This document shows positions 38 through 11,742 of a DNA stretch of 45,511 nucleotides, piece after piece. How positions within the stretch are numbered: position 1 is the first letter of the stretch; every line of letters starts with the position of its first letter. Below the pieces are notes generated by a model, which saw nothing but the letters and a program-made list of their open reading frames with translations, made no database searches and had not been told where the DNA came from. The DNA comes from Escherichia phage vB_Ec-G8: sequence record PQ433350.1, one strand, 5' to 3'. Both the position numbers and the translations under genes were made by a program.

Positions 38-3000
38 ATGGCACAAATGATCAAAACAAACATGAGGCTTTGTGATATGGCTGAAGAGATTAAGATTTAT
101 GGTGCCAAAGGCGGAAGCCAGAAGCAGCATCAACCAGTTGAGCAGGAAGATAACCTTATTTCACTTAACAAGGTTAAGGTGTTGCTTGCTGTAGCTGACG
201 GAGAGGTTGACCATAACTTCTCAATGAAGGATTTATACCTTGCTGACGTTCCCGTGCAAAACCAGGATGGTAGCTACAACTACGAAGGTGTTCGCGCTGA
301 GTTCCGCGCTGGTACGCAGTATCAGGATTATATCGCTGGCCTTGATGGTGCAAACTCAGAGATCCAGGCCTCCAGAGAAATCACGAACGACACCCCGTAC
401 ATCATTGCGGTTAACAATACTCAGCTATCAGCAATTCGTGTAAAGCTATACTGGCCTAGACTGGTTAAGCAAGAAAGCAATGGGGACCTGAACGGAACAA
501 CCTGCGAGTATGCAATTGACCTTTCTGTTAATGGTGGAGCATATCAGGAATACACTCGCGGAGTTGCTAACGGCAAGACAACTACAGGTTACGACCGCAG
601 CATTCGCGTGAACCTTCCTGCAGAGTTTGATAGCGCATTGGTTCGCATCCGTAAGATTACAGCAGATTCAACAAGTAGCACGCTGGTTAACGGAATGCAG
701 ATTACAACCTATCAGGAAGTAATAGACGCTAAATTCCGCTACCCGCTTACAGCACTTGTTTACGTTGAGTTCGGCTCTGACCTGTTCCCTAACGGAATTC
801 CAACAATCTCAATCAAGAAGCGATGGAAGTTAATTCAGGTCCCAACGAACTATGATCCTGAGACTAGAACCTACAGCGGCACGTGGAATGGCCTGTTCAA
901 GATGGCATGGTCAAACAACCCTGCGTGGGTTCTCTATGACTTGGTAACAAACCGCCGCTACGGCCTTGATCAGCGAGAGTTGGGTGTAGAAATTGATAAA
1001 TGGGGACTGTATGAAGCTGCGCAATTCTGCGACCAGATGGTGCCTGATGGTAAGGGTGGAATGGAACCGCGATATCTATGCGACATGGTTGTACAGAACA
1101 AGGTTGAGGCCTACACACTAATTCGTGACATTTGCTCAATCTTTCGTGGACTGACTTTCTATGATGGCGAAAAGATTGGTATCGTTGTTGATAAACCTCG
1201 CAATCCATCTTACATCTTCACTAATGATAACGTTGTAAACGGATTGTTCAGCCGCACTTTTGCCAGCGATAAAAGCCTTTACACTACGGCAAACGTTCAG
1301 TTTGATGATGTGGAGAACAACTATCAGCAGGATGTTGAGCCAGTATTTGAGCTCGAGGCTACTCGCCGATTTGGTTTTAACCCGGTCGACCTAACGGCAA
1401 TTGGATGTACGCGAAGAAGTGAAGCAAACAGACGCGGAAGATGGCTACTGAAAACCAACCTGAGAAGCGAAACTATCAGCTTCACTACCGGGTTGGAAGG
1501 CATGATTCCGATGATTGGTGAGGTGATTGCGGTCAATGACGCGGCATGGTCAAGCAACTATCAGTTAAACCTTTCTGGTCGCATTGAATCAGTTCAGGGA
1601 TTGCAGGTTTTCACCCCGTTTAAAGTTGACGCAGCGCCGGGTGACAGAATTCTTTTGAACAAGCCTGACGGAAGTCCGGAGGCAAGAACTATTGCCAGTG
1701 TTTCGGAAGATGGTAGAACAATCAACCTTAACACTGCCTTTAGCTTCGTCGCTCAACCTGATACTGTTTTTGCAATCGATAAGGATAACCTTGCTCTTCA
1801 GCAGTACGTTGTGACCGGGATTCAAAAGGCAGATACTGACGGCTCGGATTCATTCCAGTATACGATTACCGCCGTAGAGTATGACCCGAACAAGTATGAT
1901 GAGATTGACTACGGCGTTAACATCGTTGACCGCCCAACTTCAATTGTTGAGCCTGACAGATTGTCGCCACCAGAAAACCTGACCGCGTCAAGTTATAGTA
2001 AGGTTGTTCAAGGCTTATCAGTTGAGACGATGGTTATTGGATGGGATAAAGCGCCATACGCTAAAACATACAATGTTCAGTGGAGAAAAGAGAATGGCAA
2101 CTGGATTAACGTACCAAGAACAGCTAGCACAGAAGTTGATATTGAAGGTATTTACGCAGGAATCTATGACGTTAGGGTTCGCAGTGTATCAGATACTGAA
2201 AACGTGTCTGCCTGGTCTGGCATTGTAACTGTATCACTAACTGGCAAGATTGGTAGCCCATCGGCACCTACGGTTATAACGGCATCAACTGATGAAGTAT
2301 TTGGCATCCGTGTTAAATGGGGATTCCCTGAAGGATCTGGTGACACTGCTTACACTGAACTTCAGCAGGTTCCAGATAATGGTGATGGTACTTACAATCC
2401 TGATAACGCAAGTTTGCTGACGTTGCTTCCATACCCAGCCTATGAATACTGGCATACGCCAATTCAGCCAGGTAAGGTGATTTGGTATCGCGCAAGATTG
2501 ATTGACAGAATCGGGAACACATCTGATTGGTCTGATTTCGCCAGAGGCATGAGTACTGATGACGCCAACATTATCAATGATTACATCAAGGTTGATATTG
2601 AGAGCTCAGAGGGATTCAAATATCTCGAGCAGAATGCGATTCAAAAGAATCAGGACATTCAGAATCAAGCTGAGGCAATTATCGAGAACGCATTAGCTAA
2701 TGACACTGATGTGCGTCGTATGACTAAGGAGAACGGCAAACGTAAGGCCGAATATGTTCAGGCAGTGAATCTTATAGCTGATGAAACTCAGGCGCGTGTA
2801 GAAGCTCTTACGCAGCTTAAAGCGCAGATAGATGATGAAGTTGTAGCATCGATTACAGAAGTTCAGACAGCGCTAGCCACCGAGACAGAAGCAAGGACTA
2901 CTGCAGACACGGCTCTATCAGCAAGATTGGGTGATAACGAGGCGGCTCTAAGCCAGAAGTTAGACGCATTCTCCAATGCGACATCTACTGGCGTGCAATA

Positions 3001-3463
3001 CGGAATTAGTTTGGGTCTTAAATATAACGGCCAGACTTATTCATCTGGCATGAGCATGGAGCTTGTCGGCACTGGTGGAAATGTTCGTAGTCAATTCATT
3101 TTTGATGCAAACAGATTCGCAATCAGTAATGGAATTGGTTCTGGTTCTGGTCAGTGGCAACTCCCCTTCGTTGTCGAGAACGGAAACGTAATCATCCAAA
3201 GTGCAGTAATTGGTGATGGTTCAATCAGTAACGCGAAGATTGGTAACTTCATTCAGTCCAATAACTACGTAGCAGGAACCACAGGTTGGAGGATTGATAA
3301 GTCTGGAAGTGCAGAGCTAAGCAACGCCACTGTAAGAGGTAATCTTTACGCTAACAATGGTAACTTCGCATTCAACGGAACCAATAACACTGTTCAGATT
3401 AACAACAATGGAATTACGGTAAACTTACCGAACGGAGGTAGAGTTGTAGTTGGAGTGTGGTAA
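38..3463 (+). CDS. Tail tip / central tail fibre protein, lambda gpJ-like host specificity protein
   Basis: 1141-aa ORF; ATG at 38 directly after hairpin+T-run (4-25); gpJ-type conserved block (AWSNNPAWVLYDLVTNRRYGLDQ); follows the gpM/L/K/I-like genes at the window end when read circularly. Confidence 0.9.
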   Translation: MAQMIKTNMRLCDMAEEIKIYGAKGGSQKQHQPVEQEDNLISLNKVKVLLAVADGEVDHNFSMKDLYLADVPVQNQDGSYNYEGVRAEFRAGTQYQDYIAGLDGANSEIQASREITNDTPYIIAVNNTQLSAIRVKLYWPRLVKQESNGDLNGTTCEYAIDLSVNGGAYQEYTRGVANGKTTTGYDRSIRVNLPAEFDSALVRIRKITADSTSSTLVNGMQITTYQEVIDAKFRYPLTALVYVEFGSDLFPNGIPTISIKKRWKLIQVPTNYDPETRTYSGTWNGLFKMAWSNNPAWVLYDLVTNRRYGLDQRELGVEIDKWGLYEAAQFCDQMVPDGKGGMEPRYLCDMVVQNKVEAYTLIRDICSIFRGLTFYDGEKIGIVVDKPRNPSYIFTNDNVVNGLFSRTFASDKSLYTTANVQFDDVENNYQQDVEPVFELEATRRFGFNPVDLTAIGCTRRSEANRRGRWLLKTNLRSETISFTTGLEGMIPMIGEVIAVNDAAWSSNYQLNLSGRIESVQGLQVFTPFKVDAAPGDRILLNKPDGSPEARTIASVSEDGRTINLNTAFSFVAQPDTVFAIDKDNLALQQYVVTGIQKADTDGSDSFQYTITAVEYDPNKYDEIDYGVNIVDRPTSIVEPDRLSPPENLTASSYSKVVQGLSVETMVIGWDKAPYAKTYNVQWRKENGNWINVPRTASTEVDIEGIYAGIYDVRVRSVSDTENVSAWSGIVTVSLTGKIGSPSAPTVITASTDEVFGIRVKWGFPEGSGDTAYTELQQVPDNGDGTYNPDNASLLTLLPYPAYEYWHTPIQPGKVIWYRARLIDRIGNTSDWSDFARGMSTDDANIINDYIKVDIESSEGFKYLEQNAIQKNQDIQNQAEAIIENALANDTDVRRMTKENGKRKAEYVQAVNLIADETQARVEALTQLKAQIDDEVVASITEVQTALATETEARTTADTALSARLGDNEAALSQKLDAFSNATSTGVQYGISLGLKYNGQTYSSGMSMELVGTGGNVRSQFIFDANRFAISNGIGSGSGQWQLPFVVENGNVIIQSAVIGDGSISNAKIGNFIQSNNYVAGTTGWRIDKSGSAELSNATVRGNLYANNGNFAFNGTNNTVQINNNGITVNLPNGGRVVVGVW

Positions 3464-3469
3464 ATGATT

Positions 3470-3495
3470 AGGCCCCTGGTGGGGCCTTTTCTTTT
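3470..3495. terminator. Bidirectional intrinsic terminator after gpJ
   Basis: AGGCCCC-tggt-GGGGCCT hairpin + TTTTCTTTT. Confidence 0.7.
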
Positions 3496-4456
3496 AGTAG
3501 AAGTTTGGAATGAATGGAAGTGCCATTGATATATTTGTGTCGAAAGGGAACTGAGCGCCTGATTGCGTCGAGTAGTTACCAATTACAGTACCTGGCACTG
3601 CTCTAACGTTACCACCAGACATGCAAATGCCCTTGTATCGCAAGTTGTTATACCCTCCAGTAACTCTAGTCGTAGCGCCACATCTAAGAAGCGGGAAGAA
3701 TCCACCATTTATTGACTGATATACATTGCTTATTTGTATAAATCCACTAAGTACAAATGGTCGCCTAACGCTGGAGAAAACAATCTGACCAGAGCTATTT
3801 GACATTGTAAGACCAGGTCCAGCTACTGGAGGTTCATTCCTGAATATCACCAACTGAACGTAAGTGCTTGCCGCCACATCATCTATACCACCATAGTTTA
3901 CATCACGGCACCATATCGTACTCCCATCACTCTCCAGAGACACGTTTGGATTATCCCACTTACCGAATGGTATTCCACTGACTGGCAGTGCTGATGATCC
4001 GTTAACCTGAATACCACCAACCCATGCCGCTGACATTAGCCGTGAGTTGCTTGATATTGCCAAGAAGTCAGTTGAGTTTTCAACTAGTATTCCTGGGCTT
4101 GATGAAGATGAGGCTGGTAGAATTTCAAAACAATTACCAGCAAAGTCAATTATTCGACCATTGGCTCCGTTAAAGTTACTAAGTGTTATCCTGCCAGTGC
4201 CGTCATTTACCTTTTGGAATCCGTTCATGTAATAAACTTCTGGTATAACATCGTAAGCGTCAACGTGGACTGCCTTCGTTGGTAGGCAGAAAGCCGTAGA
4301 GCCATGAGACATTGTCAATCCAAAATCCCACGAACTTGCTGGGGTTGAAAGTCCATTGGTATTTATTGATCCAGTCACAGCAGGTGCCCTTAACCCTGCC
4401 GTAATCTCCATCGCTGGCCTTCCGTCATTAAGGTCAATCAATATACCCTGCGGCAT
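3494..4456 (-). CDS. Putative receptor-binding / tail-associated protein (320 aa), Gly/Ser/Asn-rich
   Basis: ORF-track start is GTG; first ATG at 4456 overlaps the TAA of the upstream lipoprotein gene (TAATG coupling); sits immediately downstream of gpJ on the opposite strand; function inferred from position only. Confidence 0.5.
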   Translation of the reverse strand: MPQGILIDLNDGRPAMEITAGLRAPAVTGSINTNGLSTPASSWDFGLTMSHGSTAFCLPTKAVHVDAYDVIPEVYYMNGFQKVNDGTGRITLSNFNGANGRIIDFAGNCFEILPASSSSSPGILVENSTDFLAISSNSRLMSAAWVGGIQVNGSSALPVSGIPFGKWDNPNVSLESDGSTIWCRDVNYGGIDDVAASTYVQLVIFRNEPPVAGPGLTMSNSSGQIVFSSVRRPFVLSGFIQISNVYQSINGGFFPLLRCGATTRVTGGYNNLRYKGICMSGGNVRAVPGTVIGNYSTQSGAQFPFDTNISMALPFIPNFY

Positions 4457-4701
4457 TATTTCCACTCCTTGCTGCCATGATCTGCAATAGAGCCACCGTA
4501 ACCTCCGCCAGCCTTGCTTTCAATTCCGGCGTAGCGAACATCAACCTCACCAGCCGGAACAACTACGCCACCTTTCCATTTAGCTACGCACACACCATTT
4601 GCTTGTGTTGCACACCAACCATCCGGGCGAGGACCAGATGAGCAACCTACCATCATGATTGCTGCTGCGGCGATGATTACTGATTTGATTAAGTTAGTCA
4701 T
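4456..4701 (-). CDS. cor: Cor/Llp-like superinfection-exclusion lipoprotein (81 aa)
   Basis: N-terminal hydrophobic signal ending in lipobox MVGC-SS, small Gly-rich mature part; AAGGA RBS 9 nt upstream; coupled to the downstream 320-aa ORF. Confidence 0.7.
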
Positions 4702-4767
4702 TTTTAAATCCTTAGTAAGTTCGTTTCGTTTCGATGTGGTAATAGTATCGCATCCCTGAGATCAGTG

Positions 4768-4787
4768 TTTAGCAATTAGTGCTATTT
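4768..4787 (-). promoter_or_regulatory. Boundary element copy (AATAGCAC-N5-TGCTAAA core), precedes cor
   Basis: Minus-oriented core; Rha TAG stop inside; leader ...CCACATCGAAACGAAACGAA then cor ATG. Confidence 0.6.
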
Positions 4788-5429
4788 CTTTTCGAGTAAC
4801 ATCTTGATGTCAATGCCGAGATTATTTTCAATCAATCCAGTCAGTGCATCCGTCTTTTCTTTAAGGGCAAAACACTGAGCTTCATACTTAAATCTTTCCT
4901 CCATCTCGTCAGAGCGACTAACCCAGCACTGGCGAGCCTCGCAAGCCAGTATGTCGAGTTTTTCATCGGTATTCTTATCCATGAGTAAGATCTCATTTAT
5001 TCTTTGCTCTGCAACAATGCGCTGACTAAGGTGTGCATTTTGCGCATTAGCCACACCAAGCATCATTCGCACTTCTTTTAACTCATCAATGCTTACCATC
5101 TGACTGATTACTTCTGCTTGTTTTTTAACTAACGCCTCAAGCTCATGAAGTCTTTTAACTACCGCGTATCGAAGTGCGGGGCTGTAACCCATAACCAATG
5201 TTTCAGTTAAATCGCGGTTAAGAAGAACTTCAGAAACAAAGCCGCGATAGTCTATAAGTGCTTGATAATCCTCATGACCCAAATTTGGGTTATGCCCCGA
5301 CGCTAGGATGTCGATTATCATATCCTCACAGTCACGAATAACGTGACCATGTCTTTTCCCAGTTAATTCCGCAATTTCTTTCGTGCTCATCATGGTTTTC
5401 GGCTGTTCTTTGTACAATTTAATCTTCAT
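4782..5429 (-). CDS. Rha-family phage regulatory protein (antirepressor-like)
   Basis: Rha-type N-terminal block (MSTKEIAELTGKRHGHVIRDCEDMI); ORF track begins at 5534 but a purine-rich SD precedes the in-frame ATGs at 5435/5429; start ambiguous; TAG stop lies inside a boundary element. Confidence 0.7.
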   Translation of the reverse strand: MKIKLYKEQPKTMMSTKEIAELTGKRHGHVIRDCEDMIIDILASGHNPNLGHEDYQALIDYRGFVSEVLLNRDLTETLVMGYSPALRYAVVKRLHELEALVKKQAEVISQMVSIDELKEVRMMLGVANAQNAHLSQRIVAEQRINEILLMDKNTDEKLDILACEARQCWVSRSDEMEERFKYEAQCFALKEKTDALTGLIENNLGIDIKMLLEKK

Positions 5430-5526
5430 TTTCATCTCTCTTTGGTTTTGTGATACGAAATTTTCGTAGCGCAAGCGGCACCATTTCCGCCATGCGCCTA
5501 AATATACGTAAAGATAGTCAGTTGTC

Positions 5527-5545
5527 TTTAGCAAATCGTGCTATT
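5527..5545 (-). promoter_or_regulatory. Boundary element copy, upstream of Rha-like gene
   Basis: Minus-oriented core AATAGCACGATTTGCTAAAG. Confidence 0.55.
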
Positions 5546-7196: not shown

Positions 7197-7661
7197 ATGA
7201 ATAAAGATTGCTGGCAGACTCCTTTAGAGTTATTCAAACAAGTAGATGATAAATACAACTTCGAGGTTGACGTGTGCGCAAGTCCAGATAATGCTCTTTG
7301 TGAATATTTCTGGACTGAAGATGATGACTGCTTACAACAAGATTGGGGTGATGATTTCGGTTTCGTTTGGTGCAATCCTCCATATAGTAACCAACTTCCA
7401 TTTGTCGAAAAGTGCCAGCAATATGGTTATGCAGTCATGCTGTTGAATCAGGACACATCAACAAAATGGGCTAAGATAGTCTTTGAAAAGGCTTCAAAGG
7501 TTATACTCTTATCAGACAGGGTTAGGTTTATAAATCCATTAACATTGGAGGTTGGTAAGTCCAACCCCAAATGCCAGATGATCGTGATTTTCGACAAGAG
7601 AAGTAATTCTGGAGTTGATATACGTTGGTGCTCAATAAAAGAAATTCATAAGCACATATAA
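7197..7661 (+). CDS. dam: DNA N6-adenine methyltransferase (phage Dam type)
   Basis: 154 aa; motif IV NPPY (VWCNPPY) and N-terminal WQTP block typical of small phage Dam methylases. Confidence 0.85.
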   Translation: MNKDCWQTPLELFKQVDDKYNFEVDVCASPDNALCEYFWTEDDDCLQQDWGDDFGFVWCNPPYSNQLPFVEKCQQYGYAVMLLNQDTSTKWAKIVFEKASKVILLSDRVRFINPLTLEVGKSNPKCQMIVIFDKRSNSGVDIRWCSIKEIHKHI

Positions 7662-8426: not shown

Positions 8427-8843
8427 ATGCACGTAATTACTGGTCAGATTCGCCGCGCTCCGTTCACCAAAGAAGGCGCAAACTCCAATGGTACATGGAA
8501 AATGTTTGCGGTTGATTTGAGTGAGAGACACAAAGATAAAGATGGTAAGACTCAGTATAGTAACTATCGCGCCGTCTTCTTTGCTAAAGAGTCAATGTTA
8601 GATTGGTACAACGAAGCATTTCAAGAGGGTAAAGTTGTTAGCGTTAGCGCAGAGACTCTTTCTGTTGATGTTCGTGATAAAGATGGCAAGACTTACGTAA
8701 CCATCAATATGAACAACCCGCGACTTGAATTTGGTCAGCGTGGTGATGCTGGAAGTCAGCAGCAGCAACAGCAGCAACAGCAACAGCAGAAGCAAAGACA
8801 ACCGCAGCAGCAACAGCAGTTTGATGACTCTATTCCATTCTAA
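8427..8843 (+). CDS. ssb: Single-stranded DNA-binding protein with poly-Gln linker
   Basis: 138 aa; OB-fold-like N-terminus; canonical acidic SSB tail DDSIPF; long poly-Q linker; followed by terminator. Confidence 0.85.
   Translation: MHVITGQIRRAPFTKEGANSNGTWKMFAVDLSERHKDKDGKTQYSNYRAVFFAKESMLDWYNEAFQEGKVVSVSAETLSVDVRDKDGKTYVTINMNNPRLEFGQRGDAGSQQQQQQQQQQQKQRQPQQQQQFDDSIPF
8757..8820 (+). repeat. CAG/CAA trinucleotide tract encoding the SSB poly-Gln linker
   Basis: About 20 consecutive Gln codons with Lys/Arg/Pro interruptions. Confidence 0.8.
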
Positions 8844-8849
8844 AGATAA

Positions 8850-8871
8850 GGCCCCTTTCGGGGCCTTTTTT
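8850..8871. terminator. Bidirectional intrinsic terminator (ssb / tail fibre convergence)
   Basis: GGCCCC-tttc-GGGGCC + T6. Confidence 0.75.
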
Positions 8872-11701
8872 ACGAAGCTGTATTTACCTGAAGATATGCA
8901 CCATTAGTTGCACCAAACCATGCGTAAGCAGATCCGTAAGCAGATCCGTAAGTTGTTGGGTTGTCATTTAAAATGAAATCACCCGCTCTAATTACGCACT
9001 TTGCTCCATATGTATCAGTGGGTCTTGCACTAAACCCATAATCAACATATCTAAAACCAACCTTCGTTACGTTATCGTTAAGCGGGAAGATCCTTAAGAA
9101 GCTGGAATCTCTAAAGTCATTGTTCCTGAAAATTCCTCCTGTAAAGTTATCCATATCAAACATTGTGGTTAAACTTGAGGCAACAGTATTCCTGAACTTG
9201 TTGCCTTCATATGTCGGAGCTACTACTTCATAGCCAACTCTTAGCTGAACAAACCCCCCATCAATAATATTGTCCTTGACTATTGGATATTGCCCGCCGA
9301 TTGCTAAGCCACCAAACCCAGGTGTAAATTTGCAACTATTATTACTAAATATAGTGCCAACCCACGCCTGATTTGTAAGGTATGGTGCCTTGGTGTCGGT
9401 CATGGTGTTTCCGGTGATAATCAATCCATTCTTAGCCTGGGTTCCCTCCTGGCAACCCTGAATCGCTACGCCTCCACCAATCATAATGTTGTCTGATATA
9501 AGAATGTTACTTAACCCATCATTAACACCCCAATCGCTTGATGCATCATTTGTTATCAGTAGGTAGTGAGAAGAAGCTCTACCAGTAGCGTCCGTACTTA
9601 TAATACTTGTATTGCCTTTGCATATAACATTGTTTGCCGCAAAAACCTCAACAAATATACCAGCACCTTCGTAGTAGTTATCCGTAACCGTTACGTTATT
9701 GCCAGCCGGGGTTATCCTTGACTGGATAGATATTGGATAATAGAACTTGTTGGCGTGAGCGTAAGACCTTCGGCTTCTCTCGGATATTGCATAATCCTCC
9801 GCGAAAGTATGCCATGCCCTTCCTGACTGTTTTGTTGTGTTTCCTATAAACTCTGAGTAGTCACAGTTTCTTGTGATTAAGCAGTAGTTAACGTTGTATC
9901 TGAAGCTTGAATTTCTAAGAGATACGAATGCATTAGGTAAGCCATTAAGAGCATCGGCATTAACAAAGGCCCTCGAGGCATTAACCTCCATACCCTCGAT
10001 CACAACTGATGCGCATCCTTCAACCATAAAACCAAACCAGTCTTCTCTTGGTTTATGCTCTGTATCCGTTGGTTGGATTGAGTAATCTGAAAAGTCACTA
10101 TTCCAGTTTAGGCCGCTAGCTTTAAGTGTGCAATTCTTTGCGCCGAAAACAACCCTCTCAGGTGATGAACTTCCAGATATATCGATCTCAACATCATTAT
10201 TGGCAAAAATATCAACATTAAGGCCATTAAGGAAGAATGCCGTCTTCCTTAATACGTTGTACTTATCATTGTACTGAATATCAGTGGAGAATGAGACCTT
10301 CAGTCTTCCTGCGCTAATCCTTACCTTCCTGTTTGTGTTGTGACCAAGATTTATACACGCCATCACTGATGCGTTTGATTCATTAACTCCAGAAACATCA
10401 TGCCCAGCCCACTCAGTATGGATATCATCGATCCCTCCTGTAAACCTAACCCAGCAACCATTCCCCCCTGGTGATGGCTCACCAACTCCTCCAAGGAAGT
10501 CTGAAAGCGTGGAATAAGTACCATCAAATGGAACCGTTGGGCTAAAAACAGTAATCCCGTTATGTTCGCTCTTACTTACTAACGGACTCCAGTAGAACAG
10601 ACCGCCACCAGAGTTTGCTCCAGAAATGTAAGACCTTACATTTGCTAAATTTTTATTCTCATTTGTTTGTTTGATTAGTTCGTAAATTGAATCAACTGAA
10701 GATAGTCCTAAATTGCTCCTGGCAAGGCTTTTATCTGCAACATCAGATAAATTCAATGATTTTTGAAAAGTCTCATTTTTTGAGTAAACATCAAGCAAGC
10801 CTCTTACTCGCTGGGCGCTAGCGCCGCCAACCCGACTTCCTGATGCGACATAAAGAGCCTCTCTTGAATAGTAAGTTTTGTTTGGTGCCGTGCCAGTCTG
10901 AGTTAAATCAATCACCCTGTACGTATTATCGGATCCGGTTGATGCTGACACTTGTATGTTCTTAACACCAGTAATCCCCCTTGCTGACTTAACCTCAATC
11001 GCACAAAGCGCGCTATCGGAGTAGGTTATATTTATCACCTCTGGAGCGTTGATCATTGCTGACTTTTGGCATAGGTATCTAGCTCCTGATTTGAAATCAA
11101 ACGTATTCCAGTCAAGTTCTGTCAACTGAGGTGTAAGCGAGCCACCGATACCCATATTGGCAAGAGTTACCATTGTGCCAGCATCACCAGCACTATTAAT
11201 TGCCTCAATAGTAGCATCTCTCGCTGATGTGGTTGTATCCCTTGCGCTAACGGCAGTAGCGGCGCTCTCTGCGGCAGCAATCTGGCTAGCTAAAGACTCG
11301 GCAGCCCCTGTTACTGATTGGTTTGCTAATTGCTCGAAGCGAGGCCAATCGAAATTATCTTGCCCGATAAATTGCAGCAAACTTTCAATAGAAGTCTCCT
11401 TTGACTGATAGTAACGCAGAGTCTCAGCAACATCCTGAGCTAAACCCTGAACGGTAATGCCATCGTGAGCAAGAATCGCGTAACCAGTTCCGGCAGGAAC
11501 AGTTTCAGAATTAGGGTTGTAAACATTAATCTGAGTGTCGCTGATGATTTCAGAGATGGTATAAATTTTAAGTGGACTGGTTTTAAAAATAATGGTTGCA
11601 CCTACACGAATCAGTGTAAGTGGTGCTTTCCATGTTGTCCCGACGCCAGTTACCTCGCCATTTGCGGATAGCGACGCTGTTCCCAAGTCATAAATTGCCA
11701 T
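8870..11701 (-). CDS. Tail fibre / tailspike with right-handed beta-helix (pectate-lyase-like) domain
   Basis: 943 aa from ATG 11701 (GGAG upstream; ORF-track start 11731 is GTG); N-terminal adaptor-like segment, Asn/Gly-rich repetitive beta-helix-like middle; boundary element immediately upstream. Confidence 0.8.
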   Translation of the reverse strand: MAIYDLGTASLSANGEVTGVGTTWKAPLTLIRVGATIIFKTSPLKIYTISEIISDTQINVYNPNSETVPAGTGYAILAHDGITVQGLAQDVAETLRYYQSKETSIESLLQFIGQDNFDWPRFEQLANQSVTGAAESLASQIAAAESAATAVSARDTTTSARDATIEAINSAGDAGTMVTLANMGIGGSLTPQLTELDWNTFDFKSGARYLCQKSAMINAPEVINITYSDSALCAIEVKSARGITGVKNIQVSASTGSDNTYRVIDLTQTGTAPNKTYYSREALYVASGSRVGGASAQRVRGLLDVYSKNETFQKSLNLSDVADKSLARSNLGLSSVDSIYELIKQTNENKNLANVRSYISGANSGGGLFYWSPLVSKSEHNGITVFSPTVPFDGTYSTLSDFLGGVGEPSPGGNGCWVRFTGGIDDIHTEWAGHDVSGVNESNASVMACINLGHNTNRKVRISAGRLKVSFSTDIQYNDKYNVLRKTAFFLNGLNVDIFANNDVEIDISGSSSPERVVFGAKNCTLKASGLNWNSDFSDYSIQPTDTEHKPREDWFGFMVEGCASVVIEGMEVNASRAFVNADALNGLPNAFVSLRNSSFRYNVNYCLITRNCDYSEFIGNTTKQSGRAWHTFAEDYAISERSRRSYAHANKFYYPISIQSRITPAGNNVTVTDNYYEGAGIFVEVFAANNVICKGNTSIISTDATGRASSHYLLITNDASSDWGVNDGLSNILISDNIMIGGGVAIQGCQEGTQAKNGLIITGNTMTDTKAPYLTNQAWVGTIFSNNSCKFTPGFGGLAIGGQYPIVKDNIIDGGFVQLRVGYEVVAPTYEGNKFRNTVASSLTTMFDMDNFTGGIFRNNDFRDSSFLRIFPLNDNVTKVGFRYVDYGFSARPTDTYGAKCVIRAGDFILNDNPTTYGSAYGSAYAWFGATNGAYLQVNTAS

Positions 11702-11724
11702 TGTGTAAAGTCTCCATTTGTAAA

Positions 11725-11742
11725 ATAGCACGAATTGCTAAG
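11725..11742. promoter_or_regulatory. Boundary element core upstream of tail fibre gene (orientation ambiguous)
   Basis: ATAGCACGAATTGCTAAG, 21 nt upstream of the minus-strand ATG 11701. Confidence 0.5.

Follow-up and report, generated by a model that had tools for sequence, protein, structure and literature searches.

The biology of modules of the type analysed here was published between 2021 and 2026, with the genetics in 2021, receptor engineering and structures in 2025 and predictive genomics in 2026. A locus of exactly the present architecture has been described for the Drexlerviridae (PMC8594841; bioRxiv 10.64898/2026.04.02.716166), and four unrelated families of receptor-binding protein (RBP) occupy it, directed at FhuA, BtuB, LptD and YncD, each held together by >30% identity and >99% coverage (bioRxiv 10.64898/2026.04.02.716166). 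Dependence on LptD has been shown experimentally for the phages OzMSK, Bas01, Bas02 and Bas18 (PMC13035648, PMC8594841). OzMSK fails to infect two independent lptD loop mutants (PMC13035648), and Bas01 needs both NupG and LptD (bioRxiv 10.64898/2026.04.02.716166). The same preprint flags the C-terminal tip of GpJ as specificity-associated and as possibly requiring compatibility with the RBP.

Structures of both partners have been reported (PMC12685063). The RBP of phage Oekolampad (Bas18) was purified in soluble form, and in its solved complex it sits on the outer face of LptDE, where it engages the open barrel via extracellular loops 3-5 and 11, and where its Gln299 hydrogen-bonds Ser350 of LptD (PMC12685063). 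Rtp45, the lipoprotein of phage Rtp, binds LptDE from the periplasmic side between LptE and LptM (9RPS; PMC12685063). According to the same report, the strand formed by residues 30-35 of Rtp45 pairs with LptD beta6, Cys30 and Cys38 form a disulfide, and a long hairpin climbs through the lumen of the barrel, raising extracellular loop 4 by as much as 20 Å and blocking RBP binding. This mechanism rests on a cryo-EM complex, and AlphaFold is stated there to mispredict Rtp45 (PMC12685063).

Two further systems are alike in logic and target FhuA. In T5, the monomeric tip RBP pb5 acts outside while the periplasmic lipoprotein Llp alters extracellular loops from inside, but the genes lie at a different genomic location from the module described here (bioRxiv 10.64898/2026.04.02.716166). 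The effect of Llp on its target, a TonB-dependent transporter, is one of long-range allostery; lipoproteins of the Rtp45 type instead displace extracellular loop 4 physically through the barrel lumen (PMC12685063). The small lipoprotein Cor of the phages T1, phi80 and N15, whose gene lies close to those for the tail tip, likewise inactivates the receptor that the phage itself uses.

The DNA analysed (the window, 45,511 nucleotides from Escherichia phage vB_Ec-G8, record PQ433350.1) is approximately the whole genome of a T1-like coliphage (Drexlerviridae, Braunvirinae) nearest to Guelphvirus phages. Of the first 25 kb of the window, 82% is matched by CEB_EC3a, at 89.6% nucleotide identity, and ACG-M12 is also near. 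The exact sequences of the RBP and of the lipoprotein were both absent from a collection of 15 billion proteins; the nearest RBP was that of CEB_EC3a (96.9%). The phage is apparently a new species, and its module is a new allele of an already described system rather than a new kind of system.

Table 1. Features of the receptor locus, in positions of the window.
Feature	Position	Strand	Basis or remark
gpJ, 1141 aa, phrog_31	38..3463	plus	Pfam FNIII-A_GpJ, Phage-tail_3, Phage_Tail_Tip
gpJ C-terminal tip region: Phage_Tail_Tip domain (aa 971-1109) and C-terminal tail	2948..3463	plus	PF09327, E 5.4e-37
GC-rich hairpin AGGCCCC-TGGT-GGGGCCT between the gpJ and RBP stop codons	3470..3487		T-run 3', plus strand only
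RBP of the DUF6453 family, 320 aa, predicted LptD-binding type	3494..4456	minus	
TAATG stop/start overlap of lipoprotein and RBP genes	4454..4458	minus	read directly
Shine-Dalgarno AAGGAG for the RBP, within the 3' end of the lipoprotein gene	4470..4465	minus	8 nt 5' of the ATG
Superinfection-exclusion lipoprotein (putative), 81 aa, Rtp45 family (PF24052)	4456..4701	minus	Pfam and PDB matches
Lipoprotein signal peptide (aa 1-19), lipobox MVGC (aa 17-20), lipidated Cys20	4644..4642 (Cys20 codon)	minus	predicted
Shine-Dalgarno-like AAGGA for the lipoprotein gene	4709..4713	minus	7 nt 5' of the ATG at 4701

The preliminary description had reported a lipoprotein gene with an MVGC lipobox, joined by TAATG to a 320-aa open reading frame on the strand opposite gpJ, and this layout is real in every element (Table 1). 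The TAA stop of the lipoprotein gene (4458..4456) and the ATG of the RBP gene (4456..4454) have one base in common, the final A of the stop codon. In the program-made list of open reading frames the RBP begins at an upstream GTG and has 323 aa; from the ATG it has 320, and the ATG with a 1-nt overlap is the start in all seven annotated relatives (OzMSK, CEB_EC3a, ACG-M12, Rtp, JeanPiccard, AugustePiccard and Rogue1). A start-codon context ending in TAATG was also found at nine of 14 T1-like loci, and the pair itself, convergent on gpJ and overlapping by 1 nt, is kept in the seven annotated relatives and at most of the 14 loci. The RBP gene directly adjoins its gpJ homologue, the two convergent stop codons lying 30 nt apart, an arrangement seen in all T1-like relatives as well. 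A terminator is annotated at the position of the intervening hairpin in CEB_EC3a and Rogue1. A consensus scan for a promoter of the pair gave nothing above shuffled expectation. We infer that the two genes form one minus-strand unit, lipoprotein first, with coupled translation. Neither reading frame is a chance one, given the Pfam E-values of 4.7e-139 (DUF6453) and 3.2e-39 (PF24052). The label 'Gly/Ser-rich' given earlier to the 320-aa protein is true to a modest degree: Gly (11.6%) and Ser (11.2%) together make up 22.8% of its residues, compared to 14.7% in the long reading frames of the window, and Asn makes up 7.8%.

The 320-aa protein matches Pfam DUF6453 (PF20051) from end to end, with 463 bits against a cut-off of 25. 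Its sole sequence match in the PDB was 9rpt_C, the Oekolampad RBP (also chain C of 9RPW and 9RQI; E 3.4e-69, 46% identity). Identity was 93.8% to OzMSK_038, 88.8% to Rogue1 gp39, 46.0% to the Oekolampad RBP, 41.6% to JeanPiccard/Bas02 and 40.6% to Rtp44, the values for OzMSK, Oekolampad and JeanPiccard/Bas02 being from end-to-end alignments. Among the LptD-type RBPs of the Oekolampad/DUF6453 family (Rtp44, Bas01/Bas02, OzMSK_038, Rogue1 gp39), the protein is a member of the 320-aa Rogue1/OzMSK/Guelphvirus subclass, and its identity to the 311-aa subclass of Rtp44, Bas01 and Bas02 is about 41%; it lies within the >30% identity and >99% coverage that define LptD-type RBPs. An AlphaFold2 model built with 61 family members (pLDDT 87.2, pTM 0.86) is all-beta, with neither helices nor a hydrophobic helix, and has the same fold as the solved RBP in 9RPT. 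Gln298 aligns with the LptD-contacting Gln299 of the Oekolampad RBP. Comparison with T5 pb5-type RBPs, which had been suggested for this protein, was run on both sequence and fold and revealed no similarity in either, and a pb5 fold was rejected. In proteomic work on Rogue1 and the AHP24 group the RBP homologue was not reported, but only major gel bands were analysed and a low-copy tip protein could be missed.

The partner lipoprotein has a basic N-region followed by a hydrophobic core and the lipobox, and it matches PF24052 ('Phage lipoprotein family') over aa 1-80 of 81 (133.2 bits, cut-off 27). The only meaningful PDB match was 9rps_D, which is Rtp45 on LptDE (E 8.1e-37, 84% identity). The first 23 residues differ from Rtp45 at positions 7-8 only, and between aa 20 and 57 the two proteins are identical at 36 of 38 residues (95%). 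The LptD-contacting strand is nearly unchanged (residues 30-35 are CATQAN, CATQAS in Rtp45), residues 39-57 differ by one substitution (N44G), and the lipobox, Cys20, Cys30, Cys38 and the lumen hairpin are all kept, as judged by sequence conservation; the lipoprotein gene of Rtp likewise overlaps its RBP gene by 1 nt. The difference lies in the C-terminal segment, KGSSGSVRDY in Rtp45, which is five residues longer and Gly-rich here. Ser at position +2, with no Asp, predicts sorting to the outer membrane. The earlier term 'Cor-like' is apt as a functional analogy and fails as a family assignment: the receptor of Cor is FhuA, compared to LptD as predicted here, and the Cor profile phrog_1119 matched aa 7-34 only, that is signal peptide and lipobox (E 0.014, 16.8 bits). 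No Pfam match to Cor was obtained for the lipoprotein even at E <= 10. Similarity to T5 Llp was also rejected, since a PDB sequence search at E <= 10 returned only 9rps_D and chance matches. The comparison with Cor and Llp lipoproteins that had been proposed was carried out, and the mature protein matched neither; its family is Rtp45/PF24052. The T5 pair and the pair described here have no relationship in sequence or fold.

The locus is very probably a terminal-receptor module with LptD as the receptor, the RBP acting from outside and the lipoprotein from inside. An RBP and exclusion lipoprotein encoded together next to gpJ and setting the terminal receptor had been expected from the layout; homologues of both proteins in complex with LptDE (9RPT chain C, 9RPS chain D) support that expectation, and homology now specifies LptD among the receptors listed in the preliminary description. 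The monomeric RBP would insert its distal loops into LptDE, the lipopolysaccharide translocon, at its extracellular mouth and bind the open barrel state through extracellular loops 3-5 and 11, committing the phage to DNA ejection, a binding mode demonstrated for the Oekolampad homologue and extended by inference to this phage. The lipoprotein, after export and lipidation at Cys20, would be directed to the outer membrane's inner leaflet, where it would bind LptDE from the periplasm, between LptE and LptM, and push its beta-hairpin up the barrel lumen. Displacement of extracellular loop 4 by about 20 Å, demonstrated for Rtp45 and presumed for its relative here, would leave no site for any LptD-type RBP. 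Infected cells would in this way exclude superinfecting LptD-dependent phages, and progeny would not be wasted on receptor in the debris of lysed cells.

At the other end, the RBP may dock on gpJ's C-terminal tip domain through its own N-terminal region. The N-terminus is the most conserved part of the RBP family, with a majority-residue frequency of about 0.8 over the first 30 residues compared to 0.3-0.5 over residues 30-110. The differences of gpJ from Rtp43 cluster in aa 1075-1141, beside the swapped RBP allele. Going by conservation and synteny, the gpJ tip is the putative docking platform of the RBP.

An alternative accepts that the lipoprotein blocks LptD and holds that its selected role is mainly the protection of progeny from receptor in debris, as proposed for T5 Llp. 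We consider this possible, at somewhat less than even chance. The lipoprotein appears to be co-expressed and translationally coupled with a late structural gene, the RBP gene, and is not among the early genes. Wietzorrek is said to have proposed such a role for Rtp45 in the Rtp genome paper of 2006. Both roles are named for factors of this kind by Dunbar et al. However, in kuravirus-like podoviruses the homologous lipoprotein gene is placed among small genes far from the RBP and tail cluster, possibly in an early region, which would suit exclusion during infection. The two roles are, moreover, not mutually exclusive and have the mechanism in common.

That an RBP of this fold uses another or an additional receptor (FhuA, BtuB, YncD or NupG) in the 320-aa Rogue1/OzMSK subclass is improbable. 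The idea draws on the modest identity (41-46%) to the RBPs of Rtp44/Bas02 and Oekolampad, on the receptor-contacting distal loops, where conservation within the family is lowest, and on the occurrence of a dual-receptor phage, Bas01 with NupG and LptD, in the same subfamily. Against it, OzMSK, whose RBP is the 93.8% identical one, cannot infect the two lptD loop mutants, the RBPs for FhuA, BtuB, LptD and YncD are four unrelated families of which the present protein falls in that for LptD, and the partner lipoprotein is 84% identical to a protein that binds LptDE. NupG as a second receptor reached via gpJ, as in Bas01, was also considered, and no sign of it was seen: the gpJ of Bas01 carries a divergent insert around aa 900-1000 (28-48% identity to the gpJ of the window, 33 gap positions), and this segment is absent from the present gpJ, as it is from Rtp43. 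Because gpJ lacks an insert of the Bas01 type, a single protein receptor is predicted. The reading of the 320-aa frame as a non-structural membrane protein or moron beside a generic lipoprotein unrelated to adsorption, which follows the phrog_1265 label ('membrane protein; moron, auxiliary metabolic gene and host takeover') and the RefSeq name 'membrane protein' for homologues, can be dismissed, since these labels are older than the 2025 structures, the model is all-beta with no hydrophobic helix, and a homologue that is soluble on purification and was solved on the exterior of LptDE (9RPT) contradicts it.

The locus had been expected to be the most variable part of the genome, and per-ORF tblastn against CEB_EC3a, ACG-M12 and Rtp bears this out in part. 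Compared to Rtp, gpJ is 97% identical, the RBP 39-41% and the lipoprotein 79-84%, in line with the expectation. Among the closest relatives, RBP identity stays at 94-97%, a divergence not above average, which goes against it. More variable than the RBP are several accessory genes, which relatives either lack or carry at about 40-50% identity, and the lateral tail fibre (8870..11731), which matches Rtp50 over the N-terminal 15% only. In a nucleotide alignment with Rtp the divergent cassette extends from about 3260 to about 4520 and so takes in the final ~65 codons of gpJ and the final ~20 codons of the lipoprotein gene; that it reaches into the end of gpJ fits the preprint's remark on compatibility of the GpJ tip and the RBP (bioRxiv 10.64898/2026.04.02.716166). 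What the locus shows is allele exchange; it does not rank as the genome's most variable part.

Divergence of the RBP and of the lipoprotein was only loosely coupled across the 14 T1-like loci. The pSf-1-like phages combine an RBP of 68% identity with a lipoprotein of about 35%, while the lipoprotein is 84% identical in both DTL and Rtp, where the RBP is 65% and 41% identical, respectively. Loose coupling is expected if both proteins bind LptD and not each other. This suggests that the lipoprotein, previously termed cognate to the RBP, is cognate to the receptor rather than to the RBP allele. Among the seven annotated relatives the Gly-rich C-terminal segment of the lipoprotein travels with the 320-aa RBP allele. 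Strict co-variation of this tail with the RBP subclass was rejected, being broken in both directions: two loci (L022, L025) combine a 320-aa RBP with a 76-aa lipoprotein and two others (L015 and L023, the latter being DTL) a 318-aa RBP with a Gly-rich tail. The association seen in the annotated relatives is equally explained by linkage, since the recombination boundary falls inside the lipoprotein gene.

A tblastn search recovered members of the RBP family from 386 phage records and of the lipoprotein family from 342. In 66 prophage-like contigs, with RBPs 44-47% identical to that of the window, the RBP gene directly follows gpJ on the same strand and often overlaps it. No Rtp45-like gene was found within 2.5 kb of the RBP gene in these contigs, and a search by lipobox pattern found no exclusion lipoprotein within 2 kb 3' of the prophage RBP. 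In one of these prophage relatives (L027) a side tail fibre and an integrase lie downstream of the RBP. Since prophage RBPs are co-oriented and directly after gpJ, the antiparallel layout is a T1-like trait and adjacency of gpJ and RBP is general.

Separately, in kuravirus-like podoviruses (Gordonclarkvirinae) a distant DUF6453 homologue is encoded. The gene immediately before it specifies a 322-aa protein, and the coiled coil and PF09327 tip of that protein can be aligned over their full length with the final 241 residues of gpJ. By gene order, this 322-aa protein, of which the tip domain makes up the C-terminus, is the counterpart of the SU10 tail needle. In the podovirus KBNP1711 the DUF6453 gene comes after a homologous tip domain, and a lipoprotein of the Rtp45 family is encoded elsewhere in the genome of kuravirus-like podoviruses. 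None of the papers searched links kuravirus-like phages to LptD.

For the phage itself, the terminal receptor can be named from its sequence as LptD. As LptD is essential, the host cannot become resistant by a simple knock-out. Between this phage and other LptD-dependent ones, cross-exclusion is predicted, which would be useful in the design of phage cocktails, and deletion of lptD loop 11 could be used in resistant production strains. The importance for the window is small, and the field is not changed by it. Two observations go beyond the literature cited: the loose coupling of RBP and lipoprotein, and the presence of tip domain, RBP and lipoprotein in kuravirus-like podoviruses. We tentatively suggest, while holding it to be rather less probable than its converse, that the gpJ tip (PF09327), the DUF6453 RBP and the Rtp45-type lipoprotein form a self-contained, horizontally moving adsorption set that extends beyond small siphoviruses. 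If true, the kuravirus-like podoviruses as a whole group would have LptD as a terminal receptor that has so far gone unrecognised, and the module of this phage would exemplify a device for targeting LptD whose use is much wider.

The region of low identity to the T1-like phage Rtp (window 3260-4520) extended beyond the receptor-binding protein (RBP) gene. It included the last ~65 codons of gpJ, which hold 16 of the 38 gpJ differences (one of the 16 being a 5-aa indel), as well as ~20 codons at the 3' end of the lipoprotein gene. The extent of this cassette suggests that recombination breakpoints lie within conserved gpJ and lipoprotein sequence and that the gpJ tip moves together with the RBP allele.

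Homologous loci on IMG/VR contigs (66 loci, L026-L091, mostly prophage-like; RBP 44-47% identical) had the DUF6453 gene directly 3' of gpJ on the same strand, with an overlap or a gap of a few nt at the junction, and no Rtp45-like lipoprotein was found within 2.5 kb in any of them. In one (L027), the genes that come next encode a side tail fibre and an integrase. The co-oriented arrangement lacking a nearby Rtp45-like gene in these loci indicates that the antiparallel lipoprotein-RBP unit is a trait specific to T1-like lytic phages.

All three module parts were also present in Gordonclarkvirinae podoviruses (kuravirus-like, genomes of ~76 kb). The PF09327 tail-tip domain lies within a 322-aa protein, encoded where SU10 has its tail needle, that aligned end-to-end (E 8e-7) with the C-terminal 241 aa of gpJ from the window. 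The gene immediately after it encodes a DUF6453 homologue of 344 aa (Pfam E 1.3e-23) matching the LptDE-bound Oekolampad RBP (9rpt_C; E 2.4e-8). The Rtp45-family lipoprotein is encoded at a separate genome site (PF24052, E 3.4e-34) and matched LptDE-bound Rtp45 (9rps_D; E 1.2e-13). A literature search found no connection of kuravirus-like podoviruses to LptD. The presence of tip domain, DUF6453 protein and Rtp45-family lipoprotein leads us to predict, from sequence, LptD as their terminal receptor.

Coordinates of features in the window and in the podovirus loci
Feature	Sequence	Position	Strand	Remarks
Rha/anti-repressor-like gene	Window	4782-5534	minus	phrog_8235, PF09669
154-aa ORF	Window	7197-7661	plus	NPPY motif (FVWCNPPYSNQ)
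ORF at single-stranded DNA-binding protein gene position of relatives	Window	8427-8843	plus	
Lateral tail fibre gene	Window	8870-11731	minus	953 aa
Podovirus module parts	L010 (NC_023593.1, KBNP1711)	2348-4352		
Podovirus module parts	L011	1947-2246		

On the 5' side of the lipoprotein gene is a slot whose content differed between relatives. A Rha/anti-repressor-like gene occupied it in both the window, which comes from a virulent T1-like phage, and CEB_EC3a, a DNA methylase (PF01555) in OzMSK, a Dcm-like cytosine methyltransferase in Bas01 and Bas02, and an unrelated small ORF in ACG-M12.

The T1-like LptD RBP and lipoprotein also occurred in several 'Campylobacter phage' records (H69/H122: MG065667.1, MG065663.1), and a hit labelled 'Pseudomonas phage PsgS01F' (H7, PP134917.1) had 87% identity to the window's locus; its genome and that of Escherichia phage UALMA_PCEc3 are both 44,679 bp. 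These host labels look doubtful.

The NPPY motif of the 154-aa ORF is suggestive of an N6-adenine DNA methyltransferase; tblastn detected no counterpart of this ORF in CEB_EC3a, ACG-M12 or Rtp. The ORF at the single-stranded DNA-binding protein position carries an 11-glutamine run and a Gln-rich tail, followed by a C-terminal DDSIPF motif; its tblastn coverage varied (74% in CEB_EC3a; 100% at 58% identity in ACG-M12).

The preliminary description had expected the RBP locus to be the most variable part of the genome, but the lateral tail fibre gene is more variable. Its product had 85-90% identity to the closest relatives, and similarity to Rtp50 was confined to the N-terminal ~15%. The lateral tail fibre is probably the main host-range determinant on O-antigen-bearing strains.
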